Positions 38,932 to 43,248 of a DNA stretch of 64,000 bases are shown here, piece after piece (positions within the stretch are counted from its first letter, which is position 1; each line of letters begins with the position of its first letter). The notes below the pieces were generated by a model. That model saw nothing but the letters and a program-made list of their open reading frames with translations, was not told the origin of the DNA and made no database searches. A program made the position numbers and the translations under genes. Location of the stretch: assembly GCF_003334405.1 (NCBI RefSeq), contig NZ_QOWM01000010.1. One strand, given 5' to 3'. Source of the stretch: Escherichia coli (GTDB lineage: Bacteria; Pseudomonadota; Gammaproteobacteria; Enterobacterales; Enterobacteriaceae).

Positions 38932-42084
<3,153 letters not shown>

Positions 42085-42629
42085 TACAACGTGTAATCAC
42101 TAAGGCCGCGTAAGCGGCCTTTTTTATGCATAACCTACGAACATTAAGGAGTAATTGAACCACCAACTCAGGATCTCATACGAAAACCAGTATTAACCAC
42201 GGATAAAATTCATAAAAAATACTGATTGTTAGTTAATTTATATTAAGTAGCGCTAATAGATTTAATAATCCATAATCATTTAGAGGCTATTCTTAATTAT
42301 TTGCGGTAATTCTTTATTCATTCCTCGGTTATTACGTCATATTCAGAGCAATCCTGGTATTAGTGTCACCAATTTCATCTGGCGATAATCCTGAAATGTT
42401 ATGAATAGTTCGAGCAAACTGCTTTTACCTGCTGCGGGTTAGTGCTAGTATGAAAAAGTGAGTCCTGTCCCGCTTCCTTCCTAATTGTAATTTTTCGTAA
42501 TAATGCGATGAAAACCTGCAAAGAGTGGCTTATAGTTAAGCTAACAAACGAGAGGGCAAGTCCAGGTCAGTAAGTTTTTTCCATCCCGAAAGGTGTCCGT
42601 TAGTTCAACCGCTAAGAAGGGGACGCGTT

Positions 42630-43004
42630 ATGGATGAATACTCACCCAAAAGACATGATATCGCACAGCTTAAGTTTCTCTGTGAAACCCTGTATCATGA
42701 CTGCCTTGCAAACCTTGAAGAAAGCAATCATGGCTGGGTAAACGACCCAACCTCGGCGATCAACCTCCAGTTGAATGAACTGATTGAGCATATTGCGACC
42801 TTCGCACTTAATTACAAAATTAAGTATAATGAAGACAATAAGCTCATTGAGCAGATCGACGAATATCTGGATGACACCTTTATGTTGTTCAGTAGTTATG
42901 GTATTAATATGCAGGATCTTCAGAAATGGCGGAAGTCAGGTAATCGACTATTCCGTTGTTTTGTCAATGCGACGAAAGAGAATCCTGCGAGTTTATCTTG
43001 TTAG
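42630..43004 (+). CDS. tomB: Hha toxicity modulator TomB (YbaJ), 124 aa
   Basis: ORF track 124 aa; located immediately upstream of hha on the same strand. Confidence 0.92.
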
Positions 43005-43029: not shown

Positions 43030-43248
43030 ATGTCCGAAAAACCTTTAACGAAAACCGATTATTTAATGCGTTTACGTCGTTGCCAGACAATTGACACGCT
43101 GGAGCGTGTTATCGAGAAAAATAAATACGAATTATCAGATAATGAACTGGCGGTATTTTACTCAGCCGCAGATCACCGCCTCGCCGAATTGACCATGAAT
43201 AAACTGTACGACAAGATCCCTTCCTCAGTATGGAAATTTATTCGCTAA
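43030..43248 (+). CDS. hha: Hemolysin expression-modulating protein Hha (H-NS co-regulator), 72 aa
   Basis: ATG at 43030 gives [72 protein letters not shown]; embedded in the longer ORF-track entry 42784..43248. Confidence 0.95.

Follow-up and report, generated by a model that had tools for sequence, protein, structure and literature searches.

The acrB–tomB intergenic region of Escherichia coli as the control region of the tomB-hha operon

We analysed the intergenic region between acrB and tomB in a 64,000-nucleotide stretch of Escherichia coli DNA (the window, to which coordinates refer unless another sequence is named) and found that it corresponds to the promoter and control region previously described for tomB-hha, ordinary in kind and mostly known. 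In all likelihood, this transcription-control region is joined to the end of acrB and is made up of a sigma-70 promoter with a CpxR box, a short leader and AT-rich upstream DNA. For E. coli our analysis mostly confirms what databases hold, namely a single Cpx-controlled promoter, a short leader and an H-NS-bound spacer, and it removes the idea of a hidden RNA. Our additions are modest: a family-wide fixed architecture, a decayed Rcs-type box, a conserved motif, (G)CTAAC-N3-ATGAA-N4-AAGG, and a different gene neighbourhood in sister families. Since Hha is a partner of H-NS and helps to silence virulence and foreign genes, the control of its synthesis has practical weight.

The gap extends from the end of acrB (38935-42084) to the tomB start at 42630, and thus covers 42085-42629 (545 bp). 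It corresponds to NC_000913.3 480709-481253, where the RefSeq annotation of K-12 has no feature. Apart from 14 mismatches, the window equals MG1655 459338-523337 in reverse complement; positions were converted as 523338 minus the NC_000913.3 coordinate, with a shift of +776 from NC_000913.2 to version 3. Of 5426 complete E. coli genomes, 5424 have the gap, with identities of 90-100% (at least 95% in all but 19). A first-pass annotation, made from the sequence, had described it as unusually long, AT-rich and devoid of a credible open reading frame (ORF), and our measurements agreed. No other of the window's 59 intergenic regions matches it in length (median 109 bp, second longest 430 bp). The GC content of the gap is 0.378, compared with 0.522 for the window, and intergenic regions that reach 50 bp have a median of 0.441. 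Among these 39 regions it ranks sixth lowest, which makes it clearly AT-rich but not extreme; its core, 42201-42480, has a GC content of 0.339. The single internal ORF of at least 25 aa encodes 40 aa from a TTG start on the reverse strand.

For comparison we gathered tomB loci from 80 genomes representing different Enterobacteriaceae species and extracted 76 acrB-tomB spacers, this window included. These spacers measure 435-559 bp (median 509) with GC contents of 0.35-0.40, and their alignment is a mosaic in which conserved blocks alternate with variable parts. The features of the gap and of the operon that follows it are these:

42085-42127, plus strand: acrB 3' untranslated region (UTR) and intrinsic terminator (terminator scan, folding, conservation)
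42127-42200, no strand: Escherichia-only segment of 74 bp, with a column conservation of 0.03-0.09, absent from the other aligned genera
42201-42480, no strand: AT-rich upstream region, GC 0.34, with short conserved motifs and variable spacers; no transcription start site (TSS) listed
42343-42356, no strand: predicted degenerate RcsAB/RcsB-type box TCAGAGCAATCCTG, matching 9/14 positions of TAAGAATATTCCTA and 7/8 of TNRGAN4TCYNA
42394-42406, no strand: remnant, with ATGAAT at 42401, of the (G)CTAAC-N3-ATGAA-N4-AAGG motif, which has a fixed position in other genera
42443-42451, plus strand: candidate extended -10-like element TGCTAGTAT, from which transcription would start near 42458
42487-42501, plus strand: CpxR box GTAAT-TTTTC-GTAAT, a direct repeat at -56 to -42 relative to the start
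42508-42536, plus strand: sigma-70 core promoter P1, with -35 ATGAAA (42508-42513), a 17-nt spacer and -10 TATAGT (42531-42536)
42543-42629, plus strand: tomB 5' UTR of 87 nt, starting at A 42543, with CCATCCC (42581-42587), a hairpin (42600-42615) and the Shine-Dalgarno sequence AAGGGGA (42617-42623)
42630-43004 and 43030-43248, plus strand: tomB and hha, the regulated operon (ORFs and RefSeq annotation; TomB family PF10757)

The tomB promoter, its CpxR box and the leader

The promoter scan placed P1 (ATGAAA-17-TATAGT) at 9 of 12 consensus positions, and published start-site data locate a transcript 5' end within the 5-9 nt expected after the -10 hexamer. In the data of Kim et al. (2012, PMC3415461, supplementary file 2), tomB has a single start, at 480019 of NC_000913.2, with 53 reads and an 87-nt UTR. 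This position is 42543 in the window, 7 nt past TATAGT, and the upstream 50-mer given for it in their table ends in …TATAGTTAAGCTA, indicating a sigma-70 promoter with a mapped start. The same source has no further start between 479900 and 480499 (NC_000913.2), and in Klebsiella pneumoniae it gives the orthologue (ybaJ) one start, with a 97-nt UTR and the same promoter sequence. Cappable-seq starts on the K-12 plus strand, which is the minus strand of the window and antisense to tomB, were absent from the gap. Together, these data show that tomB-hha is transcribed from one mapped sigma-70 promoter with its start at 42543 and a leader of 87 nt.

P1 appears to be served by more than one form of RNA polymerase. 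Shimada et al. (2014, PMC3946193) list the identical sequence as a 'constitutive' promoter of tomB-hha for the RpoD holoenzyme in vitro. A sigma-S chromatin immunoprecipitation (ChIP) peak at 479920-480115 of U00096.2, whose coordinate version we checked against dps, corresponds to 42447-42642 and spans the tomB promoter (PMC4447067).

Directly before the promoter lies the most conserved block of the gap, the near-invariant AATTGTAATTTTTCGTAATA at 42483-42502. It contains the direct repeat GTAATTTTTCGTAAT (42487-42501), which matches 8 of 10 positions of GTAAA-N5-GTAAA and qualifies as a tandem CpxR box. In 74 of the 76 species the box takes the form GTAATTTTTCGT(A/G)AT and sits exactly 6 nt 5' of the -35 hexamer, followed by the same arrangement of (A/G)TGAAA, 17 nt and TATAGT. 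The loci that we fetched and aligned from Yersinia (GTAAGATTAAGTAAT), Serratia, Erwinia and Pantoea retain it as well. In Y. pseudotuberculosis the CpxR motif 56 bp upstream of the proximal ymoB start (TSS2) binds phosphorylated CpxR (CpxR~P) in an electrophoretic mobility shift assay (EMSA), and ymoB promoter activity is higher in Cpx-on mutants (PMC13353760). As the same box is aligned in Yersinia, that EMSA concerns a homologous site. For the E. coli genes, RegulonDB gives both tomB and hha as CpxR targets, and the CpxR iModulon includes tomB (PMC7657598). Furthermore, an inhibitor of LolCDE that activates Cpx, Rcs and RpoS together induces tomB 6- to 11-fold (PMC5105897). From conservation, the Yersinia gel shift and the database listings we infer that CpxR~P would activate P1 during envelope stress through the box at -56 to -42, a class-I-type position.

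The leader itself is unremarkable. Its conservation is moderate among Enterobacteriaceae spacers, and it folds no better than shuffled sequence (z = +0.2). The consensus structure reaches -5.7 kcal/mol, with covariation confined to one 5-bp hairpin (42600-42615) just 5' of the Shine-Dalgarno sequence, in which one pair is U-A in 31 sequences and G-C in 20. By complementarity, the segment CCAUCCC (42581-42587) could pair with the Shine-Dalgarno sequence GGGGAUG; this pairing is unproven because both sides are invariant. A structured leader or riboswitch, taken as one of more than about 150 nt with covarying structure, was considered and rejected, the leader being 87 nt long with z = +0.2.

Natural variants of the promoter were seen in three loci. 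In E. coli FAM21845, a cheese isolate (L098), the insertion sequence IS1 lies between the tomB -35 and -10 hexamers with a 9-bp target duplication (42522-42530), and the promoter is split. In E. coli TUM13773 (L099), IS1 stands in place of 42193-42572. This strain has thereby lost the upstream DNA, the CpxR box, P1 with its start, and 30 nt at the 5' end of the leader, so that its tomB-hha must be either silent or driven from IS1. Mangrovibacter (L092 1655-2500) has an 846-bp spacer in which the CpxR box is unrecognisable and the TATAGT -10 is retained. This lineage may have rewired its tomB promoter.

Further starts lie inside tomB. Kim et al. (2012, PMC3415461) report hha starts with 115-nt and 16-nt leaders, at 42915 and about 43014 in the window, and a good promoter match, TTCGCA-18-TATAAT (10/12), occurs at 42801-42830. 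Having its own starts within tomB, hha can be transcribed without tomB, and such separate transcription bears on the 'toxin-antitoxin' balance of the pair. In addition, several database proteins of about 205 aa (P0005, P0008, P0010, P0026, P0027 and others) carry both TomB PF10757 and Hha PF05321. These apparent fusions, seen in some assemblies, could be artefacts of sequencing or gene calling, or true read-through of the 25-nt gap between the two genes.

The upstream region: terminator, Rcs-type box and H-NS

At its acrB end the gap begins with a terminator hairpin, AAGGCCGC-GTAA-GCGGCCTT (42102-42121), which lies 18 nt past the acrB stop codon and is followed by a T-run. It folds with -18.8 kcal/mol (z = -3.7). 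Other genera retain the hairpin, and paired substitutions preserve its stem, as in GGTCGCG/CGCGACC and GGGCCGC/GCGGCCC. The terminator scan found no other terminator-like site on the sense strand of the gap. Transcription of acrAB ends at this strong hairpin. The 74-bp segment that follows is the reason why the E. coli gap exceeds the family median of 509 bp, and the 545 bp could be read as a family-wide control region of about 500 bp plus this Escherichia-specific insert. A 12-nt inverted repeat (42120-42131 and 42208-42219; TTTTTTATGCAT and ATTCATAAAAAA, 92% complementary) flanks the segment and may be a trace of how it was inserted.

Between the insert and the CpxR box, the alignment shows conserved blocks at 42205-42245, 42260-42275, 42338-42360 and 42394-42406. 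The third contains the degenerate Rcs-type box. We scored it against TaAGaatatTCctA, which we take to be the RcsAB-box consensus, with the core TN(G/A)GAN4TC(T/C)NA. This consensus recovered three known K-12 boxes: just past the flhD start (flhDC, TAGGAAAAATCTTA), at -49 to -36 of rprA (TGAGACGAATCTGA) and upstream of rcsA (TAAGGATTATCCGA). Validated E. coli boxes score 10-12/14 against it, and the 64-kb window has just two occurrences of the core pattern. In most genera the near-perfect palindrome TAAGAATATTCCT(G/A) lies about 165-180 bp upstream of the CpxR box, and 52 of the 76 species have a match of at least 12/14 at the orthologous position, compared with 1.2% of shuffled spacers. The box is well conserved in Salmonella, Klebsiella, Enterobacter and Citrobacter, reaches 14/14 in Kluyvera ascorbata (13-14/14 for Salmonella and Kluyvera), and is degenerate in E. 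coli; the consensus is thus matched across the family and marginally so in this window. These observations suggest that further operators would lie upstream of the promoter, the clearest being an RcsAB-type box that most Enterobacteriaceae have kept well and that has decayed in Escherichia. Within our analysis this conserved box alone may be novel, and its counterpart in this window is a decayed site.

A second element, (G)CTAAC-N3-ATGAA-N4-AAGG, occurs between the two boxes in most genera, 62-73 bp past the Rcs-type box and 101-114 bp before the CpxR box. From one close relative to another, these spacings change by lengths not divisible by 3, indicating that the motif is non-coding. The E. 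coli copies, namely the degenerate Rcs-type box (42340-42357) and the ATGAAT region (42390-42407), form an 18-nt imperfect inverted repeat, 72% complementary and 32 nt apart; the two may be related copies. Other short motifs in this part of the gap resemble promoter elements. Those at 42222-42269 (CTGATTG, ATTTATAT and AATAAT, the last being TATAAT in other genera) are promoter-like and lack a -35 hexamer at a workable spacing. The TGnTAnnAT element at 42443-42451 is common to Escherichia, Salmonella and Citrobacter in the alignment and has no listed E. coli TSS; by analogy with the -188 start in Yersinia, it is a possible weak second promoter.

On these grounds we propose, tentatively and with more doubt than confidence, that tomB-hha is a direct target of two envelope-stress systems, through CpxR and through the conserved RcsAB-type operator. 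With the (G)CTAAC motif, the latter would form an upstream module linking the Rcs phosphorelay to Hha, possibly with its own weak promoter, and this module would be decaying in Escherichia. If the box is functional, a second envelope-stress pathway is tied to H-NS/Hha silencing in several pathogens; if the module exists and is decaying in Escherichia, E. coli K-12 is a poor model for it.

Shimada et al. mark the tomB-acrB spacer as holding an H-NS site found in vitro by genomic SELEX (systematic evolution of ligands by exponential enrichment) (PMC3946193). The segment 42201-42480 is likely to be the H-NS-bound part of the gap. We infer from composition and the SELEX report that this AT-rich stretch of roughly 280 bp, which precedes the CpxR box, would act as a landing platform for H-NS, probably as H-NS/Hha. 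Because Hha is itself a partner of H-NS, feedback on its own operon is conceivable.

The first-pass annotation had proposed complex, H-NS-sensitive regulation. Its first half is borne out by the CpxR box and sigma-70 promoter, the sigma-S ChIP peak, the SELEX H-NS site and the motifs conserved across genera, and H-NS sensitivity is plausible from the AT-richness and the SELEX flag. The curvature analysis that it had suggested gave a negative result, with no AA/TT periodicity at 10-11 bp. It had also named the finding that would speak against it, a short leader with the remaining sequence silent and non-conserved. The leader is indeed short, but short conserved motifs are present in the remainder.

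Objections and alternative explanations

Several observations weigh against the reading of the gap as a Cpx- and H-NS-controlled promoter region with additional upstream operators. The start-site sets cover few growth conditions, and a silenced upstream promoter would escape detection. A ChIP-exo study (ChIP with exonuclease trimming) of CpxR leaves tomB out of its 'direct targets' (PMC7657598). Moreover, a CpxR score of 8/10 is frequent in shuffled AT-rich DNA and not significant alone, so that the case for the box rests on its invariance, its fixed spacing and the Yersinia EMSA. The E. coli copy of the Rcs-type box, at 9/14, falls under the validated boxes, and our literature search found no paper on RcsB control of tomB, for which the one hint is indirect: the response of tomB to the LolCDE inhibitor, which turns on Rcs along with Cpx and RpoS. 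The gap has no phased A-tracts in addition to its lack of AA/TT periodicity, and the high-affinity H-NS motif TCGATAAATT has one match in it at up to two mismatches, which is not above shuffles.

The length of the gap might instead point to a long leader, as the first-pass annotation had suggested. A second promoter far upstream, silent in the laboratory (for example, repressed by H-NS), would then produce a tomB leader of 170-350 nt with post-transcriptional control. The candidates are the hexamer at 42264-42269, where E. coli has AATAAT and many genera a TATAAT-like sequence, and the TGnTAGTAT at 42443-42451, whose TGnTAnnAT form Escherichia shares with Salmonella and Citrobacter. The two ymoBA starts of Y. 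pseudotuberculosis, at -188 and -106 (PMC13353760), and an RpoS-holoenzyme SELEX peak in the tomB-acrB spacer (480454 of U00096.2, about 42108 in the window) point the same way. However, Kim et al. found one start in the E. coli gap and one for tomB in K. pneumoniae. The TATAAT-like element has no acceptable -35 hexamer 16-19 nt upstream, the conserved blocks being 21-22 nt away, and the spacers between motifs vary in length and sequence with no conserved RNA structure. The mapped 87-nt leader also folds no better than shuffled sequence. We regard such a leader as quite unlikely. As the leader was measured at 87 nt (97 nt in K. pneumoniae), with no other start in the gap, a long 5' UTR is not supported.

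An independent gene within the gap, either a small regulatory RNA or a small protein, is very improbable. The gap is unusually long for a spacer between co-directional genes, it has a conserved ATG at 42401 within the ATGAA motif, and TAAGGAG occurs at 42145-42151, in the Escherichia-specific insert. On the other side, an Rfam scan at a permissive E-value returned no match near the gathering score; its weak Trp_leader and isrK matches were the acrB terminator hairpin, beyond which we found no conserved RNA structure in the gap. P1 is the sole start listed on either strand, and the single terminator-like site is that of acrB. Across the 76 species, the median length of a spacer's longest ORF is 47 aa, compared with 49 aa expected from shuffling. 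Two recurrent ORF clusters were examined and rejected, as they arise from translating conserved DNA of the CpxR box and promoter and their frame is not preserved. Furthermore, the distances from the conserved ATG to the CpxR box vary by non-multiples of 3 among close relatives, and RefSeq K-12, which includes validated small proteins and small RNAs, annotates nothing in the gap. Nothing, then, indicates a separate RNA or protein gene there, and the small RNA that had been suggested found no support in the Rfam search, the starts, the terminators or the folding.

Two other forms of control were tried for the promoter and rejected. The gap contains no GGTNNNACC, which argues against a PdhR-regulated tomB-hha promoter (box ATTGGTnnnACCAAT, core GGTnnnACC). 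The PdhR box given for tomB-hha in a 2020 genomic SELEX paper lies at 41614-41630, some 460 bp within the acrB gene, and agrees with the consensus at only 8 of 14 positions; the connection that databases draw from PdhR to tomB seems weak. A palindromic operator of the toxin-antitoxin type overlapping the tomB promoter was not found.

The neighbourhood in sister families offers a different account of the length. In Yersinia, Serratia, Erwinia and Pantoea a conserved ORF of 117 aa (354 bp), with the C-terminus …ADEL, stands directly upstream of tomB/ymoB, at the following coordinates in the fetched loci:

L084 989-1342: 117-aa ORF
L086 990-1343: 117-aa ORF
L087 791-1144: 117-aa ORF
L088 1004-1357: 117-aa ORF
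L089 1001-1354: 117-aa ORF

The stop codon of this ORF overlaps the CpxR box (…GAA TTG TAA), and acrB is absent there. The protein has no Pfam or NCBIfam match, and a database search with it returned Erwiniaceae hypothetical proteins only; no homologue turned up in Enterobacteriaceae. In Yersinia, Serratia, Erwinia and Pantoea the operon may thus include this ORF as a third gene, given the overlap of its stop codon with the CpxR box. Its distance to tomB is 143-158 bp (356 bp in Serratia). The deep-branching Enterobacteriaceae Cronobacter, Cedecea, Mangrovibacter and Apirhabdus have acrB and spacers of 463-846 bp.

The AT-rich spacer might thus be a relic of the 117-aa gene, lost when acrAB came to lie beside tomB. 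This would explain the length and would be compatible with the gap being the tomB-hha control region. Consistent with it, all four outgroups have the 354-bp ORF overlapping the box and no acrB, the Enterobacteriaceae spacer from the acrB terminator to the CpxR box is of similar size (about 350 bp), E. coli retains AATTGTAA at the 5' edge of the box, and the ORF of Erwinia and Pantoea has AAGAATATTC… at codons ~20-24, an 11/14 match to the Rcs-type box. Searches with tblastn, six-frame protein profiles (hmmsearch) and DNA profiles (nhmmer), on the other hand, found only the CpxR box in 80 spacers, including the deep-branching ones of 691-846 bp. Moreover, an 11/14 match arises in about 10% of shuffled spacers, and the CpxR site alone accounts for the retained AATTGTAA. 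We consider this origin unlikely.

Comparison with known systems

The CpxR-controlled promoter that we propose for tomB-hha resembles envelope-stress promoters such as cpxP, yebE, yccA and ftnB, whose GTAAA-N5-GTAAA boxes fall in the 100 bp or so preceding the start. Like these, tomB has a direct repeat of GTAAA-like pentamers with 5-nt spacing on the coding strand; it varies together with the CpxR iModulon, RegulonDB lists it, and the orthologous box binds CpxR~P. It differs in that both pentamers are GTAAT rather than GTAAA, in that ChIP-exo made no direct-target call, and in that the promoter is bound by RNA polymerase alone (hence 'constitutive') and by the sigma-S holoenzyme.

The putative Rcs-type box compares with the RcsAB/RcsB boxes of flhDC, rprA, rcsA and wza. 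In most Enterobacteriaceae, TAAGAATATTCCTR occupies a fixed place in the spacer and scores as well as or better than validated E. coli boxes. The E. coli tomB copy, in contrast, reaches 9/14 and lies about 190 bp upstream of the mapped start, whereas such sites are usually promoter-proximal. As in H-NS-silenced AT-rich promoter regions, tomB has about 280 bp of 34% GC, flagged by SELEX, beside its promoter. Unlike them, its gap is core, vertically inherited DNA and not a horizontally acquired island, it shows neither phased A-tracts nor an excess of the high-affinity motif, and its promoter gives a clear start signal in standard cultures.

The orthologous operon in Yersinia is ymoBA. Both operons have TomB/YmoB first and Hha/YmoA second, with a CpxR box 56 bp from the proximal start, and their Shine-Dalgarno sequences and start contexts can be aligned. 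The Yersinia gap measures 158 bp and follows the 117-aa ORF, whereas that of E. coli measures 545 bp and follows acrB; ymoBA has two mapped starts (-188 and -106) compared with one for tomB in E. coli. No Rcs-type box was found within 1.5 kb upstream of ymoB in the Yersinia loci. Finally, tomB-hha shares with type II toxin-antitoxin operators two small genes in one operon, the modulator TomB coming first. Its promoter differs from theirs in having no overlapping palindrome, and its control is apparently external, through CpxR, sigma factors and H-NS, rather than through autorepression by an antitoxin.

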